Below, piece after piece: positions 4,069 through 60,284 of a DNA stretch of 64,000 nucleotides. Position numbers and translations under genes: made by a program. Within the stretch, counting starts at the first letter, position 1; every line of letters starts with the position of its first letter. The notes beneath the pieces were generated by a model that searched no databases, was not told the DNA's origin, and saw only the letters and a program-made list of their open reading frames with translations. The DNA comes from Candidatus Micrarchaeota archaeon (lineage in GTDB: Archaea; B1Sed10-29), in assembly GCA_964579265.1 (NCBI GenBank), contig CAZOFO010000001.1, forward strand, positions 46,115-110,114, in the 5' to 3' direction.

Positions 4069-4141
4069 GGGTCCGTGGTCTAGTGGCTATGACGTCGCCT
4101 TCACGAGGCGAAGTGCAGGAGTTCGAATCTCCTCGGACCCA
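4069..4141 (+). tRNA. tRNA-Val (anticodon CAC)
   Basis: Cloverleaf: acceptor GGGTCCG/CGGACCC; anticodon arm TCGCC-TTCACGA-GGCGA (U33, anticodon CAC); T-arm AGGAG-TTCGAAT-CTCCT; discriminator A. Confidence 0.8.
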
Positions 4142-8792: not shown

Positions 8793-8865
8793 GGGGTCAT
8801 AGGGTAGCCTGGTATCCTACCGGCTTTGGGTGCCGGTGACCTGAGTTCAAATCTCAGTGACCCCA
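8793..8865 (+). tRNA. tRNA-Pro (anticodon UGG)
   Basis: Acceptor GGGGTCA/TGACCCC; anticodon arm CCGGC-TTTGGGT-GCCGG (anticodon TGG); T-arm CTGAG-TTCAAAT-CTCAG; D-arm GGGT/ATCC. One extra nucleotide between the D and anticodon stems, or a 6-bp anticodon stem. Confidence 0.7.
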
Positions 8866-8901
8866 TTTCAATTTGAAAAATTAAGCTTTATTTCAGTATT
8901 T

Positions 8902-8987
8902 GCAGGGGTGGCGGAGCCCGGTCAAACGCGTGGGACTTAAGATCCCATGGCTTAGTGCCTTCAAGGGTTCGAATCCCTTTCCCTGCA
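8902..8987 (+). tRNA. tRNA-Leu (anticodon UAA), class II with long variable arm
   Basis: Acceptor GCAGGGG/TCCCTGC (one G-U pair); anticodon arm TGGGA-CTTAAGA-TCCCA (anticodon TAA); variable arm GGC-TTAG-GCC; T-arm AAGGG-TTCGAAT-CCCTT. Confidence 0.75.
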
Positions 8988-9019
8988 TATAATATACTGC
9001 AGAGGATCTTCTAAGGTAT

Positions 9020-11958: not shown

Positions 11959-11967
11959 TTATTTTTA

Positions 11968-12864: not shown

Positions 12865-12865
12865 T

Positions 12866-14842
12866 TTATGTTTTCACTTCCTCTTCTTTTATTTTTTCCA
12901 TTAGTTTTTCAGGATTGCTCTGGTACTGTGCTATTACTTCTCCTACTTCTTCAAATCCTGTTATGTTGTTTTCCTGCATCCATTTTAGTATTGTAGCTCT
13001 TCTCTGCAGTTCTCTCCACATTTCTTCTTTTGATATTCCTTTTTCATCGGATATTTCTTTTAGTATATGGCTTTCTTCTGATACGAATTCGAAGTAATCG
13101 TCCGAGGGTACGTAAGTGAATAGTTCATTGGTTATTGGTTGTCCTGTGTCCATATCTACATCTACTACTTCTACCAGTGATTTTACTCTTCTTGCATCTA
13201 TTTTTTCTACTTTGGAAAATCCCAGTATTATTATCACATCGAGGTGTTGAAGCAGTCCAGGAGAGAGATTTATTGGTTCTGTTTTTAATCTGTTTATTAC
13301 TGCTTGTATGGAGTCTGCGTGCATTGTTGCGAATCCAGGGTGTCCTGTTGCCATTCCCTGGAACAGGTTGTATGCTTCTTCTCCTCTAACTTCTCCCACT
13401 ATTATATGGTCTGGTCTTTCTCTTAATCCTGCTTTTACTAGATCGAACATTGTTACTTCTCCTTGTTCTGTTTTTCCTTTTTTTCCTGTTTTTGTAGCTA
13501 TTTTGTTTATCCAGTGTTCGTGGGGAAGTCTAATTTCAGGTGTGTCTTCTATTGACACTATTTTACGGTCTCTTGGTATGAACATGCTTAGAGAGTTCAG
13601 CATTGATGTTTTTCCTGTTGCTGTTCCTCCGGATACTAGTACTGAGTTTTGATATTCTACTGCTACCCATATGTATGCTCCTATTATTGCTGGGACTGTT
13701 CCAAAGTTCAGTTGATCTATTATTGTGAGTGGTTCTTCTGTGAATTTTCTTATTGTAAATGTTGATCCTTTCATCGCAATTTCTTTTCCTGCTGAGTAGG
13801 TTGCTTGTAATCTGGATCCGTCTGGTAGTGCTCCTTGTAGTAATGGTTCCGATACTGATATGTGTTTCCCTGTTCTTTGAGCTAGTTTTGTAACGAATCT
13901 ATCTAGTTCATTACTGTCTTCATAGGTTACGTTTGTTTTTAGAGATCCATATCTTTTGTGGTATATGTATATTGGTATATTTTCTCCGTCGCATGAGATA
14001 TCTTCGATTGATTTATCGTGCATTAAAGGTTCTATTTTTTCTAGTCCTAAGAAGTCTCTGTATATGTAGTATAGAAGTTTATTGTATTGGTCTTGCGTTA
14101 TCTCTATTTCGTAATTCTTTATTATCCCGCTGAGTTTATCTTTTAGATATTCTCTCATTTCTTGTCTTTCTGTTGCTTCCATTAGGTTTACATCTAGTAG
14201 TTCTTTTAGAAGTCCTTTTATCTTCTCTAGTTTTTCTTTTTCTTCCTCAGTTAGTGGTGGTTCCAGTACGTCGTAGAGCAGTCTTTCTTCATCTTCGTTC
14301 CAGTGCAGTCTTGCGTATGCCCAGGGTTCTATTAATTCGTATCTTTCATCTACTTCTTCTAGTTTTGGTGGTTGCCAGGAAGGATTTATTTTTTCTGCTT
14401 TTACTTTTTCAGGTATGCTGAATAGTTCAGGTCCTCCTCTAACTTCTTGTATTGGTTTTACTCCTTCTTTTAGTCTTATTTTTCTAGTGACTTGTGGGAA
14501 TTCCCATACTTCTGGTTTTTGGAATTTTTTCTGTTCTTTTTCTTCTTCCTTTTTCTCTTTTGCAAAACCTCCTTTTATTTCTTTCTCTTTTAGTTTTTCT
14601 AATCTGGGTGATGTTCTCGTTTCAGGAGGTTCTCTTTTCTTAGTGGCTAGTTCTTCTTCTTTTGTTTCTTCTTTCATTCTTTCTCTTCTTTGGAATATGT
14701 TTTCTCTTTTCGGAGGTATTTCGGTTGGTTTTCTTTCTTTTCTTTCTTTGTTTTTTTCTTGTATTTTTTCAGCTGCTTTCTCGTGTTCTTCTTTTTCTTC
14801 TAATTTTTCTCCTGTTTTCTTTATTATGTCTTTAAGAGCCAC
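12866..14842 (-). CDS. type II/IV secretion-system ATPase (FlaI/TadA/VirB11 family) with ~170-aa K/E-rich N-terminal extension
   Basis: Walker A VSGGTATGKTSMLNSL, Asp box IVSIEDTPEI, Walker B/His box GEVRGEEAYNLFQGMATGHPGFATMHADS. The N-terminal third is low-complexity K/E/R repeats. Confidence 0.8.
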   Translation of the reverse strand: MALKDIIKKTGEKLEEKEEHEKAAEKIQEKNKERKERKPTEIPPKRENIFQRRERMKEETKEEELATKKREPPETRTSPRLEKLKEKEIKGGFAKEKKEEEKEQKKFQKPEVWEFPQVTRKIRLKEGVKPIQEVRGGPELFSIPEKVKAEKINPSWQPPKLEEVDERYELIEPWAYARLHWNEDEERLLYDVLEPPLTEEEKEKLEKIKGLLKELLDVNLMEATERQEMREYLKDKLSGIIKNYEIEITQDQYNKLLYYIYRDFLGLEKIEPLMHDKSIEDISCDGENIPIYIYHKRYGSLKTNVTYEDSNELDRFVTKLAQRTGKHISVSEPLLQGALPDGSRLQATYSAGKEIAMKGSTFTIRKFTEEPLTIIDQLNFGTVPAIIGAYIWVAVEYQNSVLVSGGTATGKTSMLNSLSMFIPRDRKIVSIEDTPEIRLPHEHWINKIATKTGKKGKTEQGEVTMFDLVKAGLRERPDHIIVGEVRGEEAYNLFQGMATGHPGFATMHADSIQAVINRLKTEPINLSPGLLQHLDVIIILGFSKVEKIDARRVKSLVEVVDVDMDTGQPITNELFTYVPSDDYFEFVSEESHILKEISDEKGISKEEMWRELQRRATILKWMQENNITGFEEVGEVIAQYQSNPEKLMEKIKEEEVKT

Positions 14843-15409: not shown

Positions 15410-17209
15410 CTAGCAGAAGTCAACGGATATTACTGGTTCGCCTTCTTCAGTTATTTCTTTCTTTTCGAGTACTACGGTCACTCTAGGACCGCTTCTTCCT
15501 TTTATACAGTTTCCTTCCCAGGTTAGGTTTGCATTTGGGTAACATAGTGTTACTTGTGCGGTTCCTGGAGCTCCTGCTGCTCCTGTGTATACTCGGGAAT
15601 GTTTTCCTATCTTTCTGTTTAGTAGTTCTTCTCTTTCGTTTCGTATGTATGTGGTTTCTTCTGTACATGTTTCCAGTATTTGTTCGACTTCATCTGGATT
15701 TTCAACTTCTAGTGTCATTGATTTTAGTACTGGTGTATTCCCTTGTTCTTCTGAGTCTAGCTTTATATCTAGTTGATATTGTTCGTGTTCTCTTTCCCAT
15801 GTCAGGTTGTATTCTTCTTCTCCATCGAGTTCCTGTGTATTGTTTTCTTCTCTTTCAGTTCCTGGTGATCCTGTGATATTTACTATTATATCTTCATCGT
15901 TTAATTCGTAATCTAGATCTACAAGGTTTGGTTGGGAACTTGCCATTGTTCTTGAATCCAGTTCAAGGTGTCCTGGGCTTTGTATCCCTGTATCTACTTC
16001 TAATTTCACTTCATCTATTTCTGGATAGTCTCCATTTACTAGTTTTGTTTCGAATTCCCATTCATATCCTTCGACTCTGTTTCCTTCTTCATCCACGAAT
16101 TCTGATCCGGATATAGTTTCTCCGGGACTCGTGGCGTTCACCCATACTGATTCCCACCACTCGTCATTTTCATCCTCTCTCCCTCTTACTCTATACTGTA
16201 TCTCTGTTTCCTCTGGAAGTTCTCCTTCCCACTCCAGTAACCCTATTCTAGGTTCTATGTCTAGATCAGTTTCGAATACTTCTGAATTGTAAGTTCCGCT
16301 ATCCGAGATATTCATGAATGTGTGGTTCATCCAATCTATTTCTACTCTGGCTTCGTGTCCTTCTTCCCTTTTTTCAGAATAATATTGGAAAATTATTTCT
16401 ACTTCTTCTCTTTCACTTACGTTTATTTGATCGGACCATGTTTCCCAATCCTCTTCTTCATCAGATTCATCTTCATGAATTTGTTTTCCATCTACAATAA
16501 CTCTTACTTCAGCATCTCTATAGAAAGGACCACCACTTCCTATTAATTTATATCTATATCCTAAAGTAATTTCTTCGAGGAATCTCACGCTTCTTGTTTC
16601 ATTGTAAAAAGTTTCCCATTCATCTGGTTCTCCTTCAGAAGGAGGTATTGAATCATTATGATGGACTGCTTCTTCAGAGAGGAGAGTTAATGTTTCGTTC
16701 TCAACTTCTGTGTAGTTGAATGTTCCGTTTTTCCATTCTTCTTCGCTTTCCACTATGAATTCGTCAAATTCTCTTTCCAGGGAGACTTCTCCGTCTCTTA
16801 TTGAGATATTCTGTTTTTCAGTATAGTTTTCCCAGTCTCCTTGGGTTTCCCAGGTTAACCTTGGTTTCCCTATCTCTTCCGGTGGAGAAATATGACCTAC
16901 AGTTGCTACGTCCTGCCGGAAAGAAAGTACTATCTTATTATTTTCTTCATCCAGTCTGATGTTCCCTTCAGGTAGATGCAGGGGAAATGTATTTCTAGCT
17001 CCTACTTCACTATTCAATATCCTTCTAAGTTCATAATCAAAACTTTCCATTTGATTAACGAGATTAATGTTTTTTGGACCGTCACCTAGTCTCTCTACAT
17101 GAGGGTAGGCCCAGAAATATGCTGCGGAAGTAGTTACGACTACGATCGCTATTAACATCACGTAAGATATTACAGGGGTTATTCCCTTTTTCATTTGCAA
17201 TTTAGACAC
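15410..17209 (-). CDS. large pilin-like / adhesin protein with archaeal class III signal peptide (599 aa)
   Basis: N-terminus MKKG|ITPVISYVMLIAIVVVTTSAAYF matches the archaeal pilin/archaellin leader (KG|I.PVI..V.LIAI). It is followed by a large acidic domain with many N-x-S/T sequons (NYT, NGT, NET, NIS, NHT, NAT, NLT). Confidence 0.6.
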   Translation of the reverse strand: MSKLQMKKGITPVISYVMLIAIVVVTTSAAYFWAYPHVERLGDGPKNINLVNQMESFDYELRRILNSEVGARNTFPLHLPEGNIRLDEENNKIVLSFRQDVATVGHISPPEEIGKPRLTWETQGDWENYTEKQNISIRDGEVSLEREFDEFIVESEEEWKNGTFNYTEVENETLTLLSEEAVHHNDSIPPSEGEPDEWETFYNETRSVRFLEEITLGYRYKLIGSGGPFYRDAEVRVIVDGKQIHEDESDEEEDWETWSDQINVSEREEVEIIFQYYSEKREEGHEARVEIDWMNHTFMNISDSGTYNSEVFETDLDIEPRIGLLEWEGELPEETEIQYRVRGREDENDEWWESVWVNATSPGETISGSEFVDEEGNRVEGYEWEFETKLVNGDYPEIDEVKLEVDTGIQSPGHLELDSRTMASSQPNLVDLDYELNDEDIIVNITGSPGTEREENNTQELDGEEEYNLTWEREHEQYQLDIKLDSEEQGNTPVLKSMTLEVENPDEVEQILETCTEETTYIRNEREELLNRKIGKHSRVYTGAAGAPGTAQVTLCYPNANLTWEGNCIKGRSGPRVTVVLEKKEITEEGEPVISVDFC

Positions 17210-19176: not shown

Positions 19177-20499
19177 GTGTCCAACATGAATTTGAGTTCC
19201 GGAAAAATGTTTGCCATAGCAATCTCTTTAGTGCTGGCAGTATCGATGATCTCAGCTACAGCAGTACTAGCGCAAGGCCCACCATCAAATAGAGAAAATG
19301 ATGAAGAAGTACCAGGCCCGGGTAATGGAGAAGAAAATGAAACCAATGGAGAAGGAATGCCAGAGATAGGTCCTCCAGAAGATATTGAAAACGTAGGGAG
19401 AGGCAAAGGAATAGGAGAAAGAGTAAGAGAAATAGTAGGAGAAAAAGTAGAAGAAATACATGAAGCGATAAAAGGAGAAAACGTATCTGGAGGAGAAATT
19501 GCGGGCATAGCTCAAGAAATAGGAGTAGAAGTAGAAGACGTTGTAAGAGTAGAAGTAAGAAACATAAAAAATGAAACAAGAAACAGAATCGACCAGGAAG
19601 AAGATCAAGGAGAAAGAATGAGAATGCAGGTACAGCAAGCTAGAGCAGGTAGATACGACTACGCATACGATAGATTTGCTACAGAAGCAAGAGAAAAAAT
19701 AAATGAATTAGAACAAAGAGGAAAAGAAACCGAAGAACTAGGAGAAATACTAAATGAAATATCAGTTGCCTACATGGAAGCACACAGAGCTGAAGACCCT
19801 GAAGAAAGAGCTCAAGAAATGAAAGAAAAAGCACAACAATTCAGAAATAAATTTGAAGAATCTGCAGGAGATGAAGCAGAAGAAATAAGAAACAAATCAA
19901 GAGAAAGAGCTCAAGAAGCAGAAGAACATATGGAAGCAGTGAGAAAAGAAGCATGGGGAAACGCTAGAAATGCAGCTCTTAATGTATTCCAAAACAGGAT
20001 AGAAGCAGCAGAAAACAAAATAGAAGCATACCAACAAGCAGGATTTAATACAGAAGAAATGGAAAGCTCTCTAGAAGATCTAAGAAATATGGAGACTGAA
20101 TTAGAACAAGCATACGAAGGAGGAGACAGAGAAGAACTTCGAGAAGTAAAAGAATCCATAAGAGAAGAATGGAAAAGCATAATGAGAGCACAACCGGAAG
20201 AAAGAGCACAAGAATATGAGGAAACAATAGAAAAACTGAACCGAACACTCAGAGATAGCGAAGGAATAATCGAAGCCGCTCAAGAAAGAGGAATAGATGT
20301 AGCTGAAGCAGTAGCATCACAGGAAGGAATAGAAAACGGTATAGAAAGAGCTAAAGAAGCTATGGAAGAAGGAAACTATGAAGAAGCCAAACAAGAAATA
20401 GAAAACCTAAGAGAAGATTTCAAGGAATACAGGGAAAAAGCAGCAGGGATTGCACAAGAACTTAGAGGAGAAATGCAAGAAGGAGTCCCAGGAGGTTGA
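19177..20499 (+). CDS. secreted E/R/K-rich alpha-helical repeat (coiled-coil) protein
   Basis: Signal peptide (MNLSSGKMFAIAISLVLAVSMISATAVLAQG). The rest is highly charged with a recurring PEERAQE / RERAQE motif (x3); ends in GG. Confidence 0.5.
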   Translation: MSNMNLSSGKMFAIAISLVLAVSMISATAVLAQGPPSNRENDEEVPGPGNGEENETNGEGMPEIGPPEDIENVGRGKGIGERVREIVGEKVEEIHEAIKGENVSGGEIAGIAQEIGVEVEDVVRVEVRNIKNETRNRIDQEEDQGERMRMQVQQARAGRYDYAYDRFATEAREKINELEQRGKETEELGEILNEISVAYMEAHRAEDPEERAQEMKEKAQQFRNKFEESAGDEAEEIRNKSRERAQEAEEHMEAVRKEAWGNARNAALNVFQNRIEAAENKIEAYQQAGFNTEEMESSLEDLRNMETELEQAYEGGDREELREVKESIREEWKSIMRAQPEERAQEYEETIEKLNRTLRDSEGIIEAAQERGIDVAEAVASQEGIENGIERAKEAMEEGNYEEAKQEIENLREDFKEYREKAAGIAQELRGEMQEGVPGG

Positions 20500-26873: not shown

Positions 26874-26899
26874 TTTATTTTCATTCTTGTGGTGGTGAC

Positions 26900-26980
26900 G
26901 CGGGGACCGGGATTCGAACCCGGGAGACCGTAAGGTCACTGGTTTAGCAAACCAGCGCACTACCACTATGCGACCCCCGC
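26900..26980 (-). tRNA. tRNA-Ser (anticodon GCU), class II
   Basis: Reverse complement reads GCGGGGG-T-CGCA-TAGTGGTAG-TGCG-CTGGT-TTGCTAA-ACCAG-[GACC-TTAC-GGTC]-CCGGG-TTCGAAT-CCCGG-TCCCCGC. Anticodon GCT; long variable arm. Confidence 0.75.
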
Positions 26981-31884: not shown

Positions 31885-33000
31885 TTATTGTTTCAGGTTT
31901 TTAGATAGTTTTTTAAGAGCTTTTCTCTTCTCTTTTTTGTTTATTTCGGATTGTTCTATGGTTTTTTCCAGTGTCTTTGTTGTTTCGTTGTATCTTTTTT
32001 TGTTTACTGGGTACGGGTATCCGTCTTTTCCTCCGTGTGCAAATGAGTATGTTGCTGGATCTTCGAAACTTGGTTTTTCATTGTATATCAGATCTGATAT
32101 TAGTGCCAGTGCTCTTAGTGTTTTTTTACCTATCCCTTCTATTTGCACTAGTTCTTTATAGTCTTTTGGTTGTATTTCTTCTGCTTTATTAAGTGCTTTT
32201 TTTATTTGAGGACTCATTTTTACTTCGTGTCTTGGTGATAGGGTTTTTTCTTTTTTTGTTTGTTCTATTAGGTTCGGAGGTTGTTCTTTATTTAGTGTTT
32301 TTTGTCCTTTTGGTCTGAAGTATTTTTCTATTTGTTCTCCGTCTTTTACTAAATCTACACTGATTTTTCTTGTTTTTTTACTTTTTTTAGATGTCAGGTC
32401 CAGTGTTTTTGTTTTTTCTTGAGTTGATATTCCTTCGTGCGGTTCTTCTATTGTATTTTCTGGGGAGTACCAGTGGTATCTTCTTGCGTATCCTTTTTTA
32501 TCTTGTTCTTTCATTCCTTGTTGTATCACTGTCCATTCTCCTTTTTCTGTGAAGAAGAAGGTATGGTGATAAAGAGTATGTTGGTCTTGTAGACAGTTTG
32601 AATCTATTTTAGCGCTTAATCTACTTTTCAATTTTAGTTCTTCTGCTTTGCTTGGTTTTACTTCTAGTTTTTTGGCTTTTTCTATTATTTGTTGTGGTGT
32701 TTTTCTGGAGGTTTTTCCTTTTCCTCCGCATACGGCTATTCCTTTGTTTTGTTCGTTTAGAGATTCTCTTAGGGCTGCTGTTGTTACTGTAGTTACTCCT
32801 GAACTATGCCAGTCATAACCTAATGCGCAGGAGAGAGATTGGAACCATGTTGGATCGCTTAATTTTCTTAAAAATTCTTCTTGTCCTTTTTCTTCTATTA
32901 TTGTAGCTGTTATTGGTTTGGCTAGTTTTTTCATTTTGCCGTATAGCCACTTTGGACATTTTCCTCCGTGTAGAGGTAGATTAATCGTTTTTCTTTCCAA
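31885..33000 (-). CDS. conserved hypothetical protein (371 aa), possibly DUF763-like
   Basis: ORF with globular N-terminal half (WHSSGVTTVTTAALRESL..., RYHWYSPEN) and K-rich C-terminal half. Domain assignment uncertain. Confidence 0.35.
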   Translation of the reverse strand: MERKTINLPLHGGKCPKWLYGKMKKLAKPITATIIEEKGQEEFLRKLSDPTWFQSLSCALGYDWHSSGVTTVTTAALRESLNEQNKGIAVCGGKGKTSRKTPQQIIEKAKKLEVKPSKAEELKLKSRLSAKIDSNCLQDQHTLYHHTFFFTEKGEWTVIQQGMKEQDKKGYARRYHWYSPENTIEEPHEGISTQEKTKTLDLTSKKSKKTRKISVDLVKDGEQIEKYFRPKGQKTLNKEQPPNLIEQTKKEKTLSPRHEVKMSPQIKKALNKAEEIQPKDYKELVQIEGIGKKTLRALALISDLIYNEKPSFEDPATYSFAHGGKDGYPYPVNKKRYNETTKTLEKTIEQSEINKKEKRKALKKLSKNLKQ

Positions 33001-35639: not shown

Positions 35640-36959
35640 CTATTTTATCTTTTTTACCAGTTCATTTATTTCTTTCTCTATACCTGGTTTTGTTTTTTCT
35701 TCTAGTTCGTAGGTCACTCTAACTGCTGGTTTATCTATATCTAGTATTCTTTTCAAGTTTATTGGAGTCCCTATTACAGCTGCCTCTGCTGGTGAATCGT
35801 TTATTGTTTTTTCCAGTTCTTTTATCTGTTTTTCCGAGTACCCCATTGCCGGTAGGACTTTCCCAACATCGTGTTTTCTATAAGTTTGTTTTATTGATCC
35901 CATTGCATATTTTCCAGGATCTATTAATTCTGCATTGTTTCTTTTTGCTGCTATTGCTCCTGCTCCTTCTTTCAGTTCTCCGTGGGTTAGTGTTGGTCCG
36001 TCTTCCACTACAATTACTTTCTTATTTTTTATTAGGTCTGGTTTATCTACATCTATCTTTGATGCTGCTTTTATTATTCTTGCTTCAGGGTTATTTTTCT
36101 TTATATTTTGTTCTACTTGTTTCACGTTTTCTTTTTCAGCTGTTTCTACTTTGTTTATTACTGCGGTATCGCACATGTGCATGTTTATCTCTCCAGGGTA
36201 ATAATTGATCTCGTGTCCTGGCCTGTGAGGGTCAAATATAGTTATCCATTGGTCTGGTTTGTAGAATGGAGGGTCATTGTTTCCTCCGTCCCATATTATC
36301 ACTTCATTATCTTTCTCAGCTTTTTCAAGTATTTCATGGTAGTCCACTCCTGCGTATACTGTTGCTCCTTTTTCTATATGAGGTTCGTATTCTTCTCTTT
36401 CTTCTATAGTGCATTCTTCTTTATCCAGGTCTTCGTAATCTTCGAAGATCTGTGTTCTCTGCTTTTTTAGATCTCCATAAGGCATAGGGTGTCTAACTAC
36501 TGCAGCATCAATTTCTTCTTCTCTAAGTTTTTCTAATACTTTTCTAGATGTCTGGCTCTTTCCAGCTCCTGTTCTCACTGCAGTAACTGCTACAACAGGT
36601 ATATTTGATTCTAACATGGTGTTATGAGGAGCTACTAATCTAAAATCTGCTCCTGCAGAGTTTACTCTAGCTGATTTCCTCATCACATCTACATAGTTCA
36701 AGTCAGAATAGGATAGAATAACTTCGTCTATTTTCTCTTCTTTTATTATCTTCTCTAGGTTAGCTTCTTTTCTTATCGGTATTCCTTCAGGGTAGTTTTC
36801 TCCTGCTAGCTCTGCAGGGTATTCTCTGTTGGTTATGTCCGGTATCTGAGCGGCAGTGAAACACACTACCTCTACATCTTTTCTCTCTCTGTAGAGACAG
36901 TTGAAGTTGTGGAAGTCTCTTCCTGCTGCACCCATTATAAGTACTCTTTTTTTATTCAT
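35640..36959 (-). CDS. P-loop NTPase-domain protein (cyclic 2,3-diphosphoglycerate synthetase-like / DUF1611-like; tentative)
   Basis: N-terminal Rossmann-like start (VLIMGAAGRDFHNF) and P-loop-like VVAVTAVRTGAGKSQTSRKV; 439 aa. Family name is from memory and unverified. Confidence 0.35.
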   Translation of the reverse strand: MNKKRVLIMGAAGRDFHNFNCLYRERKDVEVVCFTAAQIPDITNREYPAELAGENYPEGIPIRKEANLEKIIKEEKIDEVILSYSDLNYVDVMRKSARVNSAGADFRLVAPHNTMLESNIPVVAVTAVRTGAGKSQTSRKVLEKLREEEIDAAVVRHPMPYGDLKKQRTQIFEDYEDLDKEECTIEEREEYEPHIEKGATVYAGVDYHEILEKAEKDNEVIIWDGGNNDPPFYKPDQWITIFDPHRPGHEINYYPGEINMHMCDTAVINKVETAEKENVKQVEQNIKKNNPEARIIKAASKIDVDKPDLIKNKKVIVVEDGPTLTHGELKEGAGAIAAKRNNAELIDPGKYAMGSIKQTYRKHDVGKVLPAMGYSEKQIKELEKTINDSPAEAAVIGTPINLKRILDIDKPAVRVTYELEEKTKPGIEKEINELVKKIK

Positions 36960-38036: not shown

Positions 38037-39011
38037 TCATCTTCCTCCTAGAAGTTCATCGTATTTTCTTCTTGCTTCTTCCACAGATTCAACACCTTTA
38101 ACTATTGCTTTGCCGCTGCTATAGACACTTATCCTTACATTATCTTTATTTAGAATAGCTATTTTATCTCCGTATGTTTCTACTTCTGGATTTATTTCCT
38201 TTACTTTTTCAGGTTCCGTTATCCTAGGGTATATTTGAACGGAATCTTCACTACAAAGAGTTCTTGCTTCTTTTATCCTACTTAGTTCCTTGTATTTCCC
38301 GTTACAGGTGCTGCAGTCTTTTTTATTTTTAGTTTTTAGCTTATCAAAGCTCATTTTTTCTAAATTAATATTTAGTAGATTCTTCATTGGTCTTCCTTTA
38401 ACTATTTTCTCAATCTGCTTTACCTGTAGTGCTGAAATTATCTCAGCTATCCCTGGAGAAACTCCTAGTTGATCACATGTGTCTTCACTTGCTGGTTCTT
38501 CCCCTAGAACACATCTTAGACAAGGACCACCTTTTTCTACTGTCATTGTCATTCCTTTAGCTCCTCCTATCATTCCGATTATTAGAGGAACATTTTCTTT
38601 TACAGAGTAGTCATTTAGGAGAAGTCGAGTTCTAAGATTATCTGTGGAATCTATGATTACATCAGTATTCTTTACCTCTCTTTCAATATTATTTGAATTT
38701 AGATCTATTGGAGAACAGCTTATATCTTGGTTTTTATCTTTTGATATTTTCTCTATTTTTTCTTTCATTATTTCAGCTTTCAGGTTTCCTACTTCGTCTT
38801 TTGAATAGTTCTGATTATCTAAATTTCGAGACTCTAAGAAGTCTCTATCTATCAAGTTTAAATCACAACCTATCTTACCCAGTGTTTCAGAAGTTTTGGA
38901 TCCTAAGGTACCTAAACCTATTACTGTGCAATGTAGATCTCTTAGTTTATCGTAATCAGAATCTAGATAATTCTCTATCCTCGTTTTTTCACGGTTTTTT
39001 TCTCTCCGCAT
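38037..39011 (-). CDS. E1-like ThiF/MoeB/UbaA-family adenylyltransferase with ~80-aa C-terminal extension
   Basis: Nucleotide-binding motif VIGLGTLGSKTSETL and DRDFLESRNLDNQ; CxxC pairs (CLRC, CSTC). The C-terminal extension (beta-rich, ISVYSSGKAIVKG) ends in ...LLGGR. Confidence 0.65.
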   Translation of the reverse strand: MRREKNREKTRIENYLDSDYDKLRDLHCTVIGLGTLGSKTSETLGKIGCDLNLIDRDFLESRNLDNQNYSKDEVGNLKAEIMKEKIEKISKDKNQDISCSPIDLNSNNIEREVKNTDVIIDSTDNLRTRLLLNDYSVKENVPLIIGMIGGAKGMTMTVEKGGPCLRCVLGEEPASEDTCDQLGVSPGIAEIISALQVKQIEKIVKGRPMKNLLNINLEKMSFDKLKTKNKKDCSTCNGKYKELSRIKEARTLCSEDSVQIYPRITEPEKVKEINPEVETYGDKIAILNKDNVRISVYSSGKAIVKGVESVEEARRKYDELLGGR

Positions 39012-39125
39012 TTAAATCATTTCTTAGTTTTTTTCCAGAAAATTCATTAAATACTTCTTGTATACCAACCTTAAATAAGGAAAGATTCTTTATATATTAA
39101 GGGATGAAATAAGTTTTTTGATAAG

Positions 39126-39338
39126 GTGTTTGAAATGAAGATTAAGTTCAAGGGTAAAGAGGAAAAAGAATTAAAGGAAATCGAAACAGAGGCTCGAAAT
39201 ATTAAGGAATTATTAGAAAGGAAGGATATTAATCCTGTTACTCACGTAGTTTCCTTGAACGGGGAGATAGTTACTGAAGATGAAGAATTAAGCGAGGGAG
39301 ATGAAGTAAAGATCCAAAAAGTGGTTAGTGGAGGATAA
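39126..39338 (+). CDS. ThiS/MoaD/SAMP-like small ubiquitin-fold protein ending in Gly-Gly
   Basis: 70-aa ORF with C-terminal ...VKIQKVVSGG-stop, the beta-grasp sulfur-carrier/SAMP hallmark. Divergently adjacent to the E1-like gene. Confidence 0.55.
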   Translation: MFEMKIKFKGKEEKELKEIETEARNIKELLERKDINPVTHVVSLNGEIVTEDEELSEGDEVKIQKVVSGG

Positions 39339-39353
39339 TAAAAGGAGATAAAG

Positions 39354-41546
39354 ATGTCAGAGCAGGAAAGAGGATCAAGGAAGTTCGGAGCATTTACAGG
39401 AGTATTCATCCCTACCTTTCTGAGTATAGTGGGAGTTATACTGTTTTTAAGATTGGGTTTTGTAGTGGGTGGCGCAGGTTTCTGGGGAGCTATAGCTATA
39501 ATAATATTAGCGGTTTCAGTAACAATCGCAACAGGTCTTTCTCTAAGTTCAATAGCCAGTAATATAAGGATAGGTGCTGGTGGAGCTTACTCTATAATAA
39601 ATAAGACTCTCGGACTGGAGATAGGTGGGAGTATAGGCATACCTCTTTATTTGGCTCAGGCATTCTCAGTGATTCTATATATATTCGGATTCGCCGAAGC
39701 ATGGGGATACATTTTTCCCCAGCACAGTGTATTGTTAGTTTCTCTAGCTGCATTCTTGATTTTGTTTTTACTAACTTATTTGAGCACTAGCGCAGCTGTA
39801 AAAGTTCAAGTAGGAGTATTCATACTTATTTGTCTCGCTCTTATAGTTGTTTTTGCAGGAGGATTTCAAGCAGAACTAACACCTTCAGTAGGAACAGTTG
39901 AAGGTGCTCCTGGTTTCTGGATTCTCTTTGCTATATTCTTCCCTGCAGTAACAGGGTTGATGTCTGGTATAGGTATGTCAGGAGAACTTACAGATCCAAA
40001 ATCCCAAATACCTAAAGGAGTTATGTATGGTCTAGGAGTGACTGCAGTTATATATATAGCCACTGCTCTTTTACTATCTTTATCAGCTACTAGAGCTGAA
40101 TTACTCACTGAAACATTGATCCTGGCTGAAATAGCTCTAATATCTGAATTTGTTATTATAGGTATACTCGCTGCAACCTTTTCAAGCGCTCTTACAATGA
40201 TGATAGCTGCTCCAAGAGTACTTGAAGCTCTTGGAGAAAATTCTATAATCCCAAAGAGCAACTACTTCAAACAGATGTCTCCTGAAGGAGAACCTAGAAA
40301 CGCAGTAGTATTCACAGGTCTAATACTAATACCTATTATCTTAATAGGAAGTTTAGATTCGATTGCACAGGTCCTAACGATGCTTTTCTTAATAACATAT
40401 GCTATGATAAATATATCTGTATTCTTAGAACAACAACTAGGATTAAGAAGCTTTAGACCAACCTTCAAGGTTTCAAAATACATCCCATTATACGGTGCAC
40501 TTGTATCACTCATATTGATGTTCCTTGTAAATCCATACGCCAGCATAATAGCAATAATAATTATAATTTCAGTTTACATCTGGTTAGCGAAAAAAACTTT
40601 AGATCAAGAAAGCGGAGATGTAAGATCAGGATTATTCAGAGCAATATCCCAATGGTCAGCAGAAAAAACACGTTCACTACCTGAATCATCAGCACATATA
40701 TGGAAACCTAACATGATAGTACCCGTACAAAGCACTAAAACACTACGAGGGAACTTCCCACTAATAAAATCAATAGCCTACCCAAACGGAAGCATGACCG
40801 TACTAGGATTCAAACCCAAAGAAATCTCCAAGGAAAAAGACACACCAGAAGAAAACCTAACCGAAGAAGAAAGAAAGAAAGAACTCGAAATGCTACCTGA
40901 ACTAGTGGATAAATTTTCCGACGAAGAAATATTCACCTCCTACTCAACAGTAAACTTCGAAAACTACATAAATTCCCTTACAGTATCAATAGAAGCAATA
41001 GACAGCCAGGTATTCTCACCCAATATGCTATTCCTACCCTATAACCCAAACGAACTTCCTCCAAAAGACCTAAGACAAATAATAAAATCATCCAAAGAAC
41101 AAAGATGCGGTGTAGTACTATTCGACAAAGACGATGAAATAGGCCTGGGAACCGAAGAAGATATCCACGTATGGATAGATCCAAGATCACTTGAAGAAGA
41201 TTTATTCGAACAGAGATACTACGATTTATCCCTCCTAATAGCTTACAGTATAAAAAAGAACTGGGATGGAAAAATAAACATATGGATGTGCGTAGAAGAA
41301 GAAAAAGAAAAGAAAGCAAAGAGATACCTCTCAAAATTAATATACGAAGCTAGATTACCCTATTCAACTGAAATAAATGTAGTTACAGATGAATTCCAAA
41401 AAACCTTTGAAGAAGCACCCGAAGGAGACATACACATACTTCCATTCGAAGAAAAAGATATAGAAGGAGTATCAGAGACAGCAGAAACCGAAAGAAGATC
41501 CATACTATTCGTGCTGGATTCAACAAGAGAAAGCATACTAGCATAA
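39354..41546 (+). CDS. cation-chloride cotransporter (SLC12/CCC-family, APC superfamily) homologue with cytoplasmic C-terminal domain
   Basis: N-terminus KFGAFTGVFIPTFLSIVGVILFLRLGFVVGGAG matches the SLC12 TM1 signature (KFGW..GV..P..LNI.GV.LFLRL.W.VG.AG). 12 TM helices; ~280-aa hydrophilic C-terminal domain. Confidence 0.6.
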   Translation: MSEQERGSRKFGAFTGVFIPTFLSIVGVILFLRLGFVVGGAGFWGAIAIIILAVSVTIATGLSLSSIASNIRIGAGGAYSIINKTLGLEIGGSIGIPLYLAQAFSVILYIFGFAEAWGYIFPQHSVLLVSLAAFLILFLLTYLSTSAAVKVQVGVFILICLALIVVFAGGFQAELTPSVGTVEGAPGFWILFAIFFPAVTGLMSGIGMSGELTDPKSQIPKGVMYGLGVTAVIYIATALLLSLSATRAELLTETLILAEIALISEFVIIGILAATFSSALTMMIAAPRVLEALGENSIIPKSNYFKQMSPEGEPRNAVVFTGLILIPIILIGSLDSIAQVLTMLFLITYAMINISVFLEQQLGLRSFRPTFKVSKYIPLYGALVSLILMFLVNPYASIIAIIIIISVYIWLAKKTLDQESGDVRSGLFRAISQWSAEKTRSLPESSAHIWKPNMIVPVQSTKTLRGNFPLIKSIAYPNGSMTVLGFKPKEISKEKDTPEENLTEEERKKELEMLPELVDKFSDEEIFTSYSTVNFENYINSLTVSIEAIDSQVFSPNMLFLPYNPNELPPKDLRQIIKSSKEQRCGVVLFDKDDEIGLGTEEDIHVWIDPRSLEEDLFEQRYYDLSLLIAYSIKKNWDGKINIWMCVEEEKEKKAKRYLSKLIYEARLPYSTEINVVTDEFQKTFEEAPEGDIHILPFEEKDIEGVSETAETERRSILFVLDSTRESILA

Positions 41547-41605: not shown

Positions 41606-42916
41606 ATGAAAAAAATGTTTGAAAAAATAAAGAAGGCTCTCTCACCCTCTAGCCAAGAAGAAAGAATAGAAAAAATAGAAACAAGTATAGAAGATTTACG
41701 TTCAAGATTGAAAGAAGAAAAAAAAGAATACATAAATAGAAAGGAAAAAGAAGCAGAAAAAAAGCTTCAAGAACTTGAAAGACTAAGAAGAAATACTTCA
41801 GAAAAAATAGATAAACTAAAAAAAGAAAAATTCACAAAAAAAGACGATGACGAAGATAAAAAAAGAAAGAAAAAGAAATCAGCAAAAACACTAGAAGACC
41901 TTAAAAGAAACTACTGTGAAAAGGCAGAAAAAGCCTTAGAAGATATAAAAAGATCAAAATTCAATTCTACATACAGAAAAACAAAAAAAGCTTTTAAAGA
42001 ACACACTCAGTTACTAAAAGAACTGAAATCAATTTCTTACAAACAAGCAGCAGCACTTTCAAAATTCCAAACTCAAAGAAAAGCAAAAAAATCTATCAAA
42101 AAACTGGAAAGAAAAACAAAAGAGCTTGAAAAATTCCTGAAAAAAGACTACAAGATAAAGAAAATACTTATAGAAATAAAAGAAACTGAGAAAAAACTCG
42201 ATCAAAAACAAAGAAAAATCACTGAATTCAATGAAAAAATAGATAAAAAGAGAAAGGAACTGAAAGAGAACAAAAAACAGCTAAAAGAAGCAGAAGAACA
42301 ACTTGAAGAATACAAAGATGATGAAAAACATGAAAAAATCAAAAAACTAAAAGAAAAAAAGAAAAAAGAACAAAAAGAAAAAGAAAAATCCGAGAAAAAA
42401 ATCAAGAAAAAAATAAAAAGACTCAGAAGAGTGCTCAAAAAATTCAAACACCAAGAAGCAGGTAAACCCGCTGAACTATCCAGTAGATTACTAGAAAAAC
42501 CTCTAAAAACATACTTGGAGTTAGATAAAGAAGAAATAGAAAAACTGCTCGAGCAAATTCAAAAAGCAATAAATGAAAAAAGAGTAAAAGTTGATAACAA
42601 AATAGAGAAAAGAGTAGAAAAAACAAAAAAGAAACTCCAAGAACTTGAAAAACACAGAAAAAACATAGAAGAAAAGAAAGAGAAGATAAAAGAGATAAAA
42701 GAAGAAATCAAAGGGTACTCGAACTTCAAAGAAAAAGGAAAACACCTGAGAAAAGAACTAGAACAAGCAAAACAAAGGAAAGAAAGAACTGAAAGAGAGA
42801 TAAAGAAATTTACAAAAAACAGAGAAAAAGCCAAGAAAAAGATCAATAACCTAAAAGAGAAAATAGTGAACAAGATAAACAGCCAAATAGAAGGAATAGA
42901 AGTTGAATTGGAATAA
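41606..42916 (+). CDS. hypothetical K/E-rich coiled-coil protein (436 aa)
   Basis: ORF; extremely lysine/glutamate-rich heptad-like sequence. Confidence 0.4.
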   Translation: MKKMFEKIKKALSPSSQEERIEKIETSIEDLRSRLKEEKKEYINRKEKEAEKKLQELERLRRNTSEKIDKLKKEKFTKKDDDEDKKRKKKKSAKTLEDLKRNYCEKAEKALEDIKRSKFNSTYRKTKKAFKEHTQLLKELKSISYKQAAALSKFQTQRKAKKSIKKLERKTKELEKFLKKDYKIKKILIEIKETEKKLDQKQRKITEFNEKIDKKRKELKENKKQLKEAEEQLEEYKDDEKHEKIKKLKEKKKKEQKEKEKSEKKIKKKIKRLRRVLKKFKHQEAGKPAELSSRLLEKPLKTYLELDKEEIEKLLEQIQKAINEKRVKVDNKIEKRVEKTKKKLQELEKHRKNIEEKKEKIKEIKEEIKGYSNFKEKGKHLRKELEQAKQRKERTEREIKKFTKNREKAKKKINNLKEKIVNKINSQIEGIEVELE

Positions 42917-42937: not shown

Positions 42938-43372
42938 ATGACTGATATAAACTTAAAAATACTAGATGCTAAAGAGATAAAAGAAGAAAGAATGGAAGGA
43001 CTAAGTAAAATAGGTAGAAAAAGGAAAGAACCTATAAAAGGAGAAAAAATAGTTGTTGCTGAGAAAAAAGGAGAAGTAGTAGGATACGCATCACTTATAA
43101 ATAGCCCTAGATCAAATGAAGCATATATAGATAATATAAAAGTTAAAGAAAAGGAAAGAAAGAAAGGAATAGGTAAAAAACTTGAGAAAAAAATAGAAGA
43201 AACAGCTGAAAAAAATAACCTGAAAAAAATACGCTCCGATCTAATCAACCCCGAATCAAAAAAATTCTGGAAATCACAAGGATACAAAACAAAAGAAAAA
43301 GGCATGACCAACAGCATAAATAAAAGAATAAAACAGGAAAAGAAAAAAAGAAATCAAAGAAAAAGAAAATAA
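42938..43372 (+). CDS. GNAT-family N-acetyltransferase
   Basis: Acetyl-CoA-binding motif region (GEVVGYASL..., KERKKGIGKKLEKKIEETAEKNNLKKI). Confidence 0.55.
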   Translation: MTDINLKILDAKEIKEERMEGLSKIGRKRKEPIKGEKIVVAEKKGEVVGYASLINSPRSNEAYIDNIKVKEKERKKGIGKKLEKKIEETAEKNNLKKIRSDLINPESKKFWKSQGYKTKEKGMTNSINKRIKQEKKKRNQRKRK

Positions 43373-43385
43373 AAAAGGTTTCAGG

Positions 43386-44393
43386 ATGAAAAAAGCCAAA
43401 TACTACTTAAAAAAAGATAATAAAGTAATATGTTATCTTTGCCCACACACATGTAGCTTAAAAGAAGAGGAAAGAGGCAAATGCAAAGTTAGAAAAAATG
43501 TAAAAGGAGAACTATTCTCTACTGTATATGGAAAACCAACATCCGAAGGTATAGACCCAATAGAAAAGAAACCATTATACCACTTTCTTCCCGGAGAAAA
43601 AGCATTTTCAATCGGAACTGCTGGATGTAACCAAAGCTGTCTATTCTGTTGTAACTGGCAGATAAGCCAATCAACCGAAAAAGAAATAAGGACAATGGAC
43701 TTGTCCCCGGAAGAAGCTGTCAAAAAAGCCGAATCACGGAACTCAAAGATAATAGCATACACCTACAATGAACCAACAGTCTTTATAGAATATATGCAGG
43801 AAACAGCTGAGATAGCAAGGGAAAAAAATCTTAAAAATATAGCAGTAACCTGTGGTTTAGTAAATGAAAAACCATTAAGAGACATTTCCAAATTCCTTGA
43901 TGCCGCCAATATAGATCTAAAATACTTCTCCGATCAGAAATATAAAGAAGTATCCGGAGGAAGATTAGAACCGGTCCTAAATACAATAAAAACTCTAAAA
44001 GAGGAAGGAGTATGGATAGAGATCACTAACCTAATCATACCAGGACTAAACGATGACGAAGAAACTATAAGAAAAATGTGTAAATGGATAATCGACAATA
44101 TTGGAGATGAAACACCGCTACACTTCTCAAGATTCTACCCTACCTACAAAATGAATAAAAAACCACCTACCCCTATAGAAACTGTTAAAAAAGCCGAAAA
44201 AATAGCCAAAGAAGAAGGAATAAAATATGTATACATAGGTAACATCCCAGAAGAAACTCCAAATACCAACTGCAGCAACTGTGACGCAACTATAATAGAA
44301 AGAAAAGGATTCAAATCAAAAATAAAAAAACTTGACCAGGAAAAAGGAGAATGCATAGAATGCGGAGAAAAAATCCCTGGAATATGGAAATGA
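43386..44393 (+). CDS. amrS: AmmeMemoRadiSam-system radical SAM enzyme (AmrS-like)
   Basis: N-terminal Cys-rich segment CYLCPHTCSLKEEERGKCKVRKN characteristic of AmrS, then radical-SAM CxxxCxxC (GCNQSCLFCCNW). Followed by a Memo-like gene. Confidence 0.65.
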   Translation: MKKAKYYLKKDNKVICYLCPHTCSLKEEERGKCKVRKNVKGELFSTVYGKPTSEGIDPIEKKPLYHFLPGEKAFSIGTAGCNQSCLFCCNWQISQSTEKEIRTMDLSPEEAVKKAESRNSKIIAYTYNEPTVFIEYMQETAEIAREKNLKNIAVTCGLVNEKPLRDISKFLDAANIDLKYFSDQKYKEVSGGRLEPVLNTIKTLKEEGVWIEITNLIIPGLNDDEETIRKMCKWIIDNIGDETPLHFSRFYPTYKMNKKPPTPIETVKKAEKIAKEEGIKYVYIGNIPEETPNTNCSNCDATIIERKGFKSKIKKLDQEKGECIECGEKIPGIWK

Positions 44394-44408
44394 AAAAATA
44401 AAGATAAC

Positions 44409-45245
44409 ATGGATAAGAATCAACAAAAAACCAGAAAACCAGTTGCAAGAGGATTCTACCCCTTAAATAAAGAAGAACTAGAGAAAAAAATAGATAAATT
44501 ACTCAAATCTGTACCTGAAAGAAATATAAATCCAAAAGGAATAATAGTGCCTCATGCAGGATACGAATACTCAGGTAAAACCGCTGCACACGCGTATAAA
44601 TCTCTTAAAGATAGAAAAATAGAAAATGCAGTCATCCTAGGATTTAACCACTCAGGAATAGGTGAAAAAGCAGCACTATCAACTCTACCCTGGGAAACTC
44701 CACTAGGGAAAACAGAAGTGAATAGAGAAATAAAGGAAAAAATCCTAGAAAATGAAGTTATAAAAGCGGACGAATCCGCTCATTCCCAGGAACACAGCAT
44801 AGAAGTACAACTACCATTCCTACAGTTCTTAAATCCTGAAATAGAGATAACTCCAATCTCTCTCTCGAACAAAATAAGTATAGAAGAAATTAAAAAAATA
44901 TCGGAAACTCTAAAAAAGATAGATTATAAGAAAAACATATTGATAGCTTCTTCGGATTTACTACACGTAGGTTACAGATTCAACTTAGTACCTGAAGAAG
45001 ACAATCTAGAATACCTCAATAAAAAAGATGAAGAATTTATAAACAGTATAAAAGATCTCAAAATCCAGGAGATAATTGAAAAAGGAAGAAAATCCACAGT
45101 ATGCGGATTCATACCTATAGCTGTAGTATTAGATACATTAAAAGATCAAATTAAAGAGATAAAAGTTCTAGAAAGATCTAATTCTTACGAGGTAACTGGG
45201 GATAAGTCTTCAGTCGTAGGTTACGCTAGCATAGCATTAACCTAA
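44409..45245 (+). CDS. amrB: MEMO1-family protein (AmmeMemoRadiSam system protein B, AmrB)
   Basis: GIIVPHAGYEYSG motif of Memo/AmrB; several His (HSQEHSIE) consistent with the extradiol-dioxygenase-like fold. Confidence 0.7.
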   Translation: MDKNQQKTRKPVARGFYPLNKEELEKKIDKLLKSVPERNINPKGIIVPHAGYEYSGKTAAHAYKSLKDRKIENAVILGFNHSGIGEKAALSTLPWETPLGKTEVNREIKEKILENEVIKADESAHSQEHSIEVQLPFLQFLNPEIEITPISLSNKISIEEIKKISETLKKIDYKKNILIASSDLLHVGYRFNLVPEEDNLEYLNKKDEEFINSIKDLKIQEIIEKGRKSTVCGFIPIAVVLDTLKDQIKEIKVLERSNSYEVTGDKSSVVGYASIALT

Positions 45246-49017: not shown

Positions 49018-50325
49018 TTAAATATTTTTCTCTAATCCTTTTTTCAATGACTCTAGTGCTTCTTTTTGTGCTACTGGGTTCTTTTTTTCCTTGTTTTCTT
49101 TATAAATCTCTTCTTTGAATAAGTTCTTTATCTCGATCCCTAGTTCTTCTCCAGCTTTTTTCACTGCTTTCCAGGACTCCGAGTCCGGTTTGAAGTACGC
49201 TAGAATTTTTTCGTACTTCTGGTTTTTGATATATCTTCTTACTCTTTCTTTATTCACTTCGATATATTCTTTTTTTATTTCCTGTGTTTCTTCCCATTCC
49301 GGCCAGTCGTAGTCTGTGAAAGGGTAGTTATCGCATTTATCTACAGGTATTACTCCTGGACTTGACACTACCACTCTATGTATCTCTTCTTCATCTACCT
49401 TAGATTCTTTTATAGTTTTTTGTATGTTTTTATGTGTTTTTGATTCGTAGTAAGGTTTTCTATAGCTACATGGGAGCAATAAAAGAATTTTCTTTCCTTC
49501 TGGTCTTTGGTAGAGTCTTTGGAAGTAATCCTGCCATACCTGGTAGTGTGGGTGATTTATCAGTTCTCTGGAGCATCCTTTGAGTTCTTTCCTGTTTTTT
49601 TCTTCTTCTGGGAATTTTGGGATGAAGTAGTAGTTCTCGAACTCTGTCTCTACTTGAGGGTGGTCTTTCCATTCTTCAACTTCTTTTAGGAATTCTTCTT
49701 TGTTCAGTGGTTTCCATTCTCCTTTTATCCAGTCCTTGAATAGCTCTGACTGGTTGTGGGGGAAGGTGTTGATTAGAATTACTTTGTCTCCTTCTTTGGA
49801 TTTTTTCAGTACGTGTTCCACTGATTTTTCTAGCGTATCTTCCTTTTCAAACGGCATGTTGACCATTAGATATGTCTTTACTTTTCCTCCTTTTTCATGT
49901 GTTTTTTCCACTGCTTCATCGTAGTTCTCCACTTTGAATGGCTTCCCGTATTTTTCCAGGACTTCGTTGTCCGCTGTTTCCAGTCCTATCGCTATTGTGA
50001 AGTCTAGTTCCGATTTTTCGAATGGTTCAAGTTTTTCTTCAGTTATGAAATTAGCTACAGATTCAAAAACTATTTCTCTAACTTTTTTCTCTTCTAAGTA
50101 GTCTAGGATCCATTTTCTGAATTTTTTAGGAAATTGTTCGTTATCTAGGAATGATCCTGATTCGTATACTTTTAATTTATCTATATTTTCAAGGTTCAAT
50201 TGCTTTACCTGTTTTTTTAGTCTCTCTGTATCTACTGGGTATTTTTTCTGGCCCCATCCGCATGCGTAGCATGAGTTGAAGCGGCATTGTCCGGAGTTGA
50301 GGATAACTGTTTCTGTCTTATTCAT
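49018..50325 (-). CDS. radical-SAM-like protein with CX4CX2C cluster motif fused to a C-terminal Cys-containing domain (possibly archaeosine-pathway RaSEA/TIGR01210-like; tentative)
   Basis: N-terminus NSGQCRFNSCYACGW (C-x4-C-x2-C); central TIM-barrel-like region. The C-terminal ~180 aa (LLLLPCSYRKPYY..VVVSSPGVIPVDKCDNY) is a separate conserved module. The family assignment is from memory and unverified. Confidence 0.4.
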   Translation of the reverse strand: MNKTETVILNSGQCRFNSCYACGWGQKKYPVDTERLKKQVKQLNLENIDKLKVYESGSFLDNEQFPKKFRKWILDYLEEKKVREIVFESVANFITEEKLEPFEKSELDFTIAIGLETADNEVLEKYGKPFKVENYDEAVEKTHEKGGKVKTYLMVNMPFEKEDTLEKSVEHVLKKSKEGDKVILINTFPHNQSELFKDWIKGEWKPLNKEEFLKEVEEWKDHPQVETEFENYYFIPKFPEEEKNRKELKGCSRELINHPHYQVWQDYFQRLYQRPEGKKILLLLPCSYRKPYYESKTHKNIQKTIKESKVDEEEIHRVVVSSPGVIPVDKCDNYPFTDYDWPEWEETQEIKKEYIEVNKERVRRYIKNQKYEKILAYFKPDSESWKAVKKAGEELGIEIKNLFKEEIYKENKEKKNPVAQKEALESLKKGLEKNI

Positions 50326-60202: not shown

Positions 60203-60284
60203 CGCCGGGGAAGGGATTCGAACCCTTGAGGCCGTGAGGCCACCGGTCCTCGAAACCGGCGCATTTCCGCTCTGCCACCCCGGC
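60203..60284 (-). tRNA. tRNA-Ser (anticodon CGA), class II
   Basis: Reverse complement: GCCGGGG-TG-GCA-GAGCGGAAA-TGC-G-CCGGT-TTCGAGG-ACCGG-[GGCC-TCAC-GGCC]-TC-AAGGG-TTCGAAT-CCCTT-CCCCGGC-G. Anticodon CGA. Confidence 0.75.

Follow-up and report, generated by a model that had tools for sequence, protein, structure and literature searches.

A gene on the minus strand of the 64,000-nucleotide stretch of Candidatus Micrarchaeota DNA analysed here (GenBank assembly GCA_964579265.1, contig CAZOFO010000001.1, positions 46,115 to 110,114; referred to below as the window) encodes a 435-residue protein in which a radical S-adenosylmethionine (SAM) domain of the RaSEA type is fused to the C1 catalytic core of ArcS (DUF5591). 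The gene most probably encodes a single-chain minimal archaeosine synthase, which would transfer lysine to preQ0-tRNA and then cleave the product by radical-SAM chemistry to give archaeosine (G+). The window is AT-rich, with a GC content of about 35%, and positions 49018-50325 coincide with one uninterrupted minus-strand open reading frame (ORF) in the ORF list. The features of the gene are as follows.

49018-50325, minus strand: fused gene, RaSEA-type radical-SAM plus ArcS C1 (DUF5591); complete ORF of 435 residues with an ATG start
49636-50325, minus strand: radical-SAM core of the RaSEA type (archaeosine synthase beta-subunit-like), residues 1-230 (TIGR01210, PF04055, alignment)
50260-50286, minus strand: CRFNSCYAC, the C-x4-C-x2-C motif for a predicted [4Fe-4S]/SAM cluster, residues 14-22 (read from the sequence)
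49591-49635, minus strand: connector between the domains, residues 231-245, replacing the C-terminal Cys-rich module of RaSEA (alignment A2)
49096-49590, minus strand: ArcS C1 catalytic core (DUF5591), Rossmann-like beta-alpha-beta, residues 246-410 (PF17884, NF040592, NF053620, 2q07)
49432-49473, minus strand: PCSYRKPYYESKTH, exact ArcS signature PC-X3-KPY-X2-S-X2-H, residues 285-298 (published motif)
49018-49095, minus strand: conserved C-terminal helix (KNP...L motif), residues 411-435 and the stop codon (helix 421-434 in the model)

Domains and motifs of the fused protein

The N-terminal sequence GQCRFNSCYACGW gives C14-x4-C19-x2-C22, the spacing that had first drawn attention to the gene. 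Of the 57 aligned homologues, 55 share this CX4CX2C motif, as do 76 of the 78 relatives encoded in genomes. Both genome-encoded exceptions were gene-call problems (a cut contig and a wrong start); those in the alignment were one truncated gene call and P0069, a member of the fused family with the canonical CX3CX2C (CPFNCIFC), so that the length of the cluster loop is not strictly fixed. C22 was invariant in the 57-homologue alignment, and C14 and C19 were conserved at 90% or more.

The best NCBIfam match for residues 2-187 was TIGR01210 (RaSEA), with 110.9 bits over profile positions 13-209 of 313. The runner-up family, TIGR01212 (MnmL/YtqA), reached only 39.3 bits for the same domain. The Pfam family Radical_SAM (PF04055) was matched by residues 23-171 (E = 2.9e-13) with 50.8 bits, above its gathering cut-off of 29.5. 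The closest solved folds, from sequence and PDB Foldseek searches, were Elp3, viperin and queuine lyase.

DUF5591 (PF17884) was matched by residues 264-403 (E = 4.7e-21) with 75.7 bits, above the cut-off of 26, and the C-terminal part is therefore a domain separate from the Radical_SAM region, as had been proposed. The ArcS model NF040592 matched residues 246-406 over profile positions 263-416 of 575 (73.4 bits, cut-off 440), and a second ArcS model, NF053620 (cut-off 600), matched residues 248-422. The original prediction had related this domain to the C-terminal region of ArcS: its derivation from ArcS held, but the part concerned is the central C1 domain and not C2 or PUA. All three profiles suggested as a check (TIGR01210, PF04055 and DUF5591) matched, as did the ArcS models.

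The published signature of the ArcS C1 domain is PCX3KPYX2SX2H (PMC5699537; bioRxiv 10.1101/2023.04.13.536721). Besides its exact occurrence in the 435-residue protein, the full signature was exact in 46 of the 57 homologues, with H replaced by W in nine and P by Q in two; C286, K290, P291, Y292 and S295 were invariant. A conserved cysteine had been expected in the second domain, and C286, within LLLLPCSYRKPYY, is such a residue. The cysteine quoted at the time, C331 in 'DKCDNY', was rejected as a functional residue, as it lies outside the conserved alignment columns. AF0587 (PDB 2q07) was the sole solved homologue of the C-terminal domain, with an E value of 1.4e-8 by sequence (residues 274-409) and 8e-7 by fold. 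The domain also matched, in tblastn searches, the viral ArcS2 homologues of STSV1/2, Vibrio phage nt-1 and Methanobacterium virus PhiF1 (30-37% identity).

The connector of the fused proteins has the consensus F.NF.F.PKFP...IKGA...L.HP.YEVWQDYF, which runs into C1 (alignment A2). The C-terminal consensus contains KNPL, with L427 conserved in at least 90% of sequences. Judged from the sequence, the fused protein cannot hold a second Cys-ligated metal site, because it has only six cysteines in total (14, 19, 22, 251, 286 and 331).

Structure prediction, which had also been suggested, was performed with AlphaFold2 from the homologue alignment. The model was compact and two-domain, with a mean predicted local distance difference test score (pLDDT) of 94.9 and a predicted template-modelling score (pTM) of 0.88. 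A partial (beta/alpha)6 radical-SAM barrel was followed by a Rossmann-like beta-alpha-beta domain. The least confident part was the connector region (residues ~231-250; block pLDDT 77-81).

Spread of the fusion and comparison with RaSEA and ArcS

A fusion relative was encoded by at least 174 GTDB species genomes (one genome scanned per GTDB species), with 39-75% identity over residues 1-435. Most carriers belonged to DPANN (Iainarchaeota, Micrarchaeota, Aenigmatarchaeota, Nanoarchaeota/Nanobdellati, Nanohaloarchaea, Woesearchaeota, Parvarchaeota and Altiarchaeota). Several Thermoproteota (a 'Kor1' genome, Desulfurococcales, Thermoproteales and Culexmicrobium) and one Asgard genome also carried it. 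The nearest relatives of the 435-residue protein were encoded by Candidatus Iainarchaeum metagenome-assembled genomes (66-75% identity), and on this evidence an Iainarchaeota-like DPANN archaeon is the most likely source of the window. The Radical_SAM plus DUF5591 architecture, at about 415-460 residues, occurred in more than 120 protein clusters (90% identity), and the identical 435-residue protein was encoded on nine public contigs.

These observations bear on whether the gene could be an artefact, in which a frameshift, an error of assembly or a mistaken gene call had joined two neighbouring genes. The single uninterrupted ORF, the identical protein on nine independent contigs, the recurrence of one architecture across species with a conserved connector and the confident two-domain model all argue against it. 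Nothing specific was found in its favour, although the lone reverse-order contig described below could be such a case. An artefact was therefore rejected, its probability being negligible.

The reverse-order fusion (P0160, L086:60-1553) has 497 residues, with DUF5591(C1)-TGT_C2-PUA in front of a radical-SAM domain of the RaSEA type. It comes from one 2.2-kb JGI metagenome contig, and both terminal domains appear truncated relative to the profiles. It may be a true alpha-to-beta fusion or a frameshift join of neighbouring arcS and RaSEA genes. Longer radical-SAM-DUF5591 fusions were also seen, namely P0134 (488 residues) and P0135 (635 residues), the latter with an insertion of ~280 residues between its radical-SAM domain (residues 2-154) and C1 (residues 431-608). 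P0143, a short CX4CX2C radical-SAM protein, was considered as a 'split' form and rejected, its neighbouring gene being without the PC...KPY motif.

For comparison with stand-alone enzymes, the N-terminal domain was searched with phmmer against 1.84 billion cluster representatives, giving 468 matches at E<=1e-3. The ~20 best matches were fused proteins or fragments of them, and stand-alone proteins of 290-400 residues appeared from about rank 23. Four of the stand-alone proteins were tested on TIGR01210 and scored 271-358 bits, over the cut-off, and are bona fide RaSEAs. RaSEA (TIGR01210) and the fused protein have in common the three-Cys motif ending in C-x2-C-G-[YW], as well as SGSFLD, ESRPE-like, GLE and N-P/F motifs. 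Invariant positions in the joint alignment were C14, C19, C22, G23, K52, S56-G57-S58, E88, G114-L115-E116, K128, Y152 and N186. Association with ArcS is likewise common to both; here it is covalent, through the ArcS C1 domain.

Stand-alone RaSEA differs in carrying an extra N-terminal extension of 25-50 residues and in its cluster loop, which is usually CX7-9, whereas the fused protein has CX4. Among 63 stand-alone RaSEA-like representatives the first cluster gap was X7 in 29, X9 in ten, X4 in nine, X8 in seven and X3 in three. CX4 is thus a minority state in RaSEA and is near-universal in the fused subfamily only. The CX4 spacing had originally been taken as a mark of the RaSEA family; RaSEA is the best-matching family, but its stand-alone members are mostly CX7CX2C.

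ArcS (NF040592/NF053620; Phillips et al., 2010) shares with the fused protein the C1 domain, the exact signature and the Rossmann-like fold. The TGT-like N-terminal domain of ArcS is missing, with the radical-SAM domain in its place, and the tRNA-binding C2 and PUA domains are without counterpart. AF0587, an N-terminally truncated 'split' ArcS of Archaeoglobus fulgidus, demonstrates that ArcS without the TGT-like domain exists; it differs from the fused protein in retaining C2 and PUA and in lacking a radical-SAM domain. The viral ArcS2 proteins (STSV2, Vibrio phage nt-1; NAR 2023 / bioRxiv 10.1101/2023.04.13.536721) are reduced to the C1 core, like the fused protein, but are stand-alone, paired with DpdA DNA transglycosylases, act on DNA and are without a radical-SAM partner. 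Elp3 and MnmL(YtqA) (TIGR01211/TIGR01212) provide the nearest solved radical-SAM folds (6iad, 8asw) and share a '...W..G.[WF]KP' helix after strand 6, but their scores are far weaker (25-39 bits), and their appended domains (GNAT) and chemistry are different. No ArcS-RaSEA complex was found in the PDB (Foldseek; entries to April 2026).

The 435-residue protein accordingly represents the ArcS-RaSEA system in a fused and reduced form. It was filed as a full member of neither family, because the equivalog thresholds were missed and defining domains of both are absent.

Linkage to tgtA and the proposed reaction

The neighbourhood of the fusion was surveyed by clustering all ORFs within 10 kb on either side in 80 retrieved loci, with counts made over 79. 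The commonest neighbour was tgtA (ArcTGT, ~565 residues), present within 10 kb in 24 of the 79 loci and in several phyla; ~2 would be expected by chance for a genome of ~1 Mb. The encoded TgtA proteins scored 422-492 bits on TIGR00432 (tRNA-guanine(15) transglycosylase; cut-off 350). In seven loci tgtA was directly adjacent: it was divergent in five (L018, L045, L067, L078 and L081), while in the other two (L049 and L051) both genes lay on one strand and their ends overlapped. Most remaining copies lay 0.7-4 kb from the fusion. Because ArcTGT makes the preQ0-tRNA substrate, this linkage is strong guilt-by-association evidence for a role in archaeosine synthesis. Together with TIGR01210, the two ArcS models and the exact ArcS signature, it supports the original prediction that two archaeosine-pathway modules are fused here.

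The archaeosine pathway serves as the reference for the proposed reaction. In Thermococcus kodakarensis, lysine is attached by ArcS to preQ0-15 of the tRNA, and ArcS-bound RaSEA converts preQ0-Lys to G+ (PMC11298593, summarizing Yokogawa et al., 2019). The lysine and radical chemistry of the fused protein was inferred by homology to these two enzymes. ArcTGT would first insert preQ0 at tRNA position 15. The C1 domain, through its Cys286/Lys290/Tyr292/Ser295/His298 motif, would then join the epsilon-amino group of lysine to the preQ0 nitrile, giving preQ0-Lys. The radical-SAM domain is predicted to bind a [4Fe-4S] cluster on C14, C19 and C22 and to cleave SAM reductively; the resulting 5'-deoxyadenosyl radical would break the C-N bond of the lysine, so that the formamidine of G+ remains. 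In Euryarchaeota the two steps are carried out by ArcS and RaSEA in a tight heterocomplex. In the fused protein both catalytic cores are linked covalently; from the ArcS side it has lost the TGT-like, C2 and PUA domains, and from the RaSEA side the N-terminal extension and the Cys-rich tail. ArcS and RaSEA are known to form a complex (PMC11298593), and from such a partnership one would expect their cores to become fused.

The substrate of the fused enzyme is presumed to be tRNA, which it would have to recognize without a PUA domain. A PUA-less C1 core is plausible because ArcS from T. kodakarensis accepts preQ0 nucleoside 5'-monophosphate, so that lysine transfer can proceed without the L-shaped tRNA (PMC11298593), with the caveat that full-length ArcS was used. 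The frequent coupling to tgtA suggests a hand-over of tRNA from ArcTGT to the fused enzyme. A more far-reaching proposal is that the whole fused family is a self-sufficient minimal archaeosine synthase which has dispensed with the tRNA-binding domains and the Cys-rich tail and takes its specificity from docking on ArcTGT, from which it would receive preQ0-tRNA directly; this was considered possible, though rather doubtful. Alternatively, the family may modify preQ0 in non-tRNA substrates.

Several observations weigh against assignment of the gene as an archaeosine synthase. The TIGR01210 match covers the profile only partly and misses the RaSEA equivalog cut-off of 212.15 bits, and the ArcS matches are partial as well, both equivalog cut-offs (440 and 600) being missed. 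No Pfam match to TGT, TGT_C2 or PUA was obtained in the 435-residue protein at E<=1, and the presumed tRNA-binding domains (C2, PUA and TGT-like) are all missing. NCBIfam and Pfam scans of 40 ORFs found no tgtA, arcS or queC/D/E in the window, where a search for these genes had originally been advised, and tblastn with 24 TgtA sequences found no tgtA there either. This absence is uninformative because 64 kb is one piece of the genome; the pathway context was obtained from related genomes. Stand-alone RaSEA has a C-terminal Cys-rich module (P.GAG..RG.HNC..C ... C.C) that is not present in the fused family, and the radical step could differ if this module is needed for catalysis. The ArcS of Methanocaldococcus jannaschii uses NH4+, Gln or Asn in vitro (PMC11298593), and the viral C1-only ArcS2 of phage nt-1 gives dG+ in Escherichia coli without a radical-SAM partner (bioRxiv 10.1101/2023.04.13.536721). 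The chemistry of C1 is consequently not uniformly lysine-dependent.

From the absence of the Cys-rich tail in the fused family, we predict that in RaSEA this tail serves assembly or stability, e.g. docking on ArcS, and not radical chemistry. The module (four Cys and a His; P0145-P0216, alignment A2) might hold zinc or a further Fe-S cluster, or might mediate docking on ArcS. No comment on it was found in the literature searched.

The ArcS results from M. jannaschii and phage nt-1 also provide the basis for a different reading, in which C1 makes G+ directly by ammonia or glutamine amidotransfer, the radical-SAM domain adds a different modification and the product is not (or not only) archaeosine. 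The missing Cys-rich tail and the shorter cluster loop of the fused radical-SAM domain would fit such a division of labour. This domain is, however, specifically RaSEA-like (111 against 39 bits), and M. jannaschii is itself among the 196 Euryarchaea that carry both arcS and RaSEA (PMC11298593). A permanent fusion of the two modules is most simply understood as consecutive steps of one reaction. We regard direct amidotransfer as very unlikely.

The same two domains could instead have another substrate or partner, the enzyme working only when docked on ArcTGT, or on other preQ0 nucleic acids or nucleotides, e.g. DNA. The lack of a Pfam-detectable tRNA-binding domain, the adjacent or translationally coupled tgtA genes, the match to ArcS2, a C1-only viral enzyme acting on DNA, and the acceptance of a mononucleotide by ArcS are all compatible with this possibility. 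Conversely, the neighbouring gene encodes a genuine tRNA-G15 TgtA, which has a PUA domain of its own, and not a DpdA-type DNA transglycosylase, the gene in the window is placed among translation and RNA genes, and ArcS has a very high Km for the mononucleotide (433 uM; PMC11298593). Such a change of substrate or partner was judged unlikely, and single-chain archaeosine synthesis on tRNA was retained as the preferred assignment.

In the window, a conserved same-strand row of information-processing genes (L21e, Rpo4/RpoF, DUF655 and KsgA) lies upstream of the fusion gene, and an M48/HtpX-type protease gene is convergent with the fusion gene. DUF655, KsgA and Rpo4 neighbours each recurred in 9-13 of the 79 loci, the fusion sitting by this row in the lineage of the window. 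The spacer between ksgA and the fusion gene is 149 nt long and contains an A/T-rich element, TTTAATTAA, 34-42 nt 5' of the ATG; by sequence inspection only, it is a possible archaeal promoter.

Other genes of the window and meaning of the fused family

Five tRNA genes were located in the window, as follows.

4069-4141: tRNA-Val (CAC)
8793-8988: tRNA-Pro (TGG) and tRNA-Leu (TAA) in tandem
26899-26980: tRNA-Ser (GCT)
60203-60284: tRNA-Ser (CGA)

All five have A14-G15, G15 being the target of ArcTGT, which is compatible with the archaeosine proposal and not discriminating. The Leu tRNA call by ARAGORN is apparently one 5' base too long.

A three-gene row on the plus strand (42938-45245) comprises a GNAT acetyltransferase (42938-43372), a 335-residue radical-SAM protein (43386-44393) and a Memo-family protein (44409-45245). 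It is reminiscent of AmmeMemoRadiSam-type groupings and has no connection with the fusion gene. A type IV pilus or archaellum-like locus on the minus strand (10717-14842) encodes a 658-residue FlaI-like ATPase, which scored below the equivalog cut-off, together with two membrane proteins resembling T2SSF/FlaJ (298 and 413 residues); several small ORFs without family matches flank the locus. At 38037-41546 a ThiF-family E1-like gene (minus strand) adjoins a 70-residue ThiS-like gene and a 730-residue amino-acid permease or cation-chloride cotransporter-like gene (plus strand); the ThiF- and ThiS-like genes could be a small ubiquitin-like or sulfur-carrier pair. The gene at 31885-33000 (minus strand) encodes a member of the conserved family DUF763 (very strong match, 416 bits). 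Four large ORFs were without a family: 15410-17209 (minus, 599 residues), 19177-20499 (plus, 440), 35640-36959 (minus, 439) and 41606-42916 (plus, 436). The first three had no NCBIfam match at E<=1e-5 and none in the Pfam scan, and the fourth had no precomputed Pfam match.

No description of a RaSEA-ArcS fusion was found in the searchable literature, earlier mention in the primary papers (Yokogawa, 2019; Phillips, 2010, 2012) being possible. Copies of the fusion are named in databases 'DUF5591 domain-containing protein', 'radical SAM protein' or, automatically, 'archaeosine synthase'. Because of such generic names, pathway reconstructions would wrongly count archaeosine synthesis as incomplete in DPANN and other genomes.

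The fusion constitutes independent evidence of the Rosetta-stone type for joint action of the ArcS C1 core with RaSEA, and in its compact form it is common among small-genome (DPANN) archaea. The minimal parts of the system are defined by it as well: a large natural family can dispense with the TGT-like, C2 and PUA domains of ArcS and with the Cys-rich tail of RaSEA, from which it is argued that these elements serve tRNA docking or subunit assembly and not chemistry. A structure of ArcS-RaSEA was still called for in 2024 (PMC11298593), and the confidently modelled single chain of 435 residues is an attractive structural and mechanistic target for the radical C-N lyase step. If the proposal of docking on ArcTGT is true, the fused family would represent the dominant route to G+ in DPANN, in some Thermoproteota and in an Asgard lineage, one that has so far gone undescribed.

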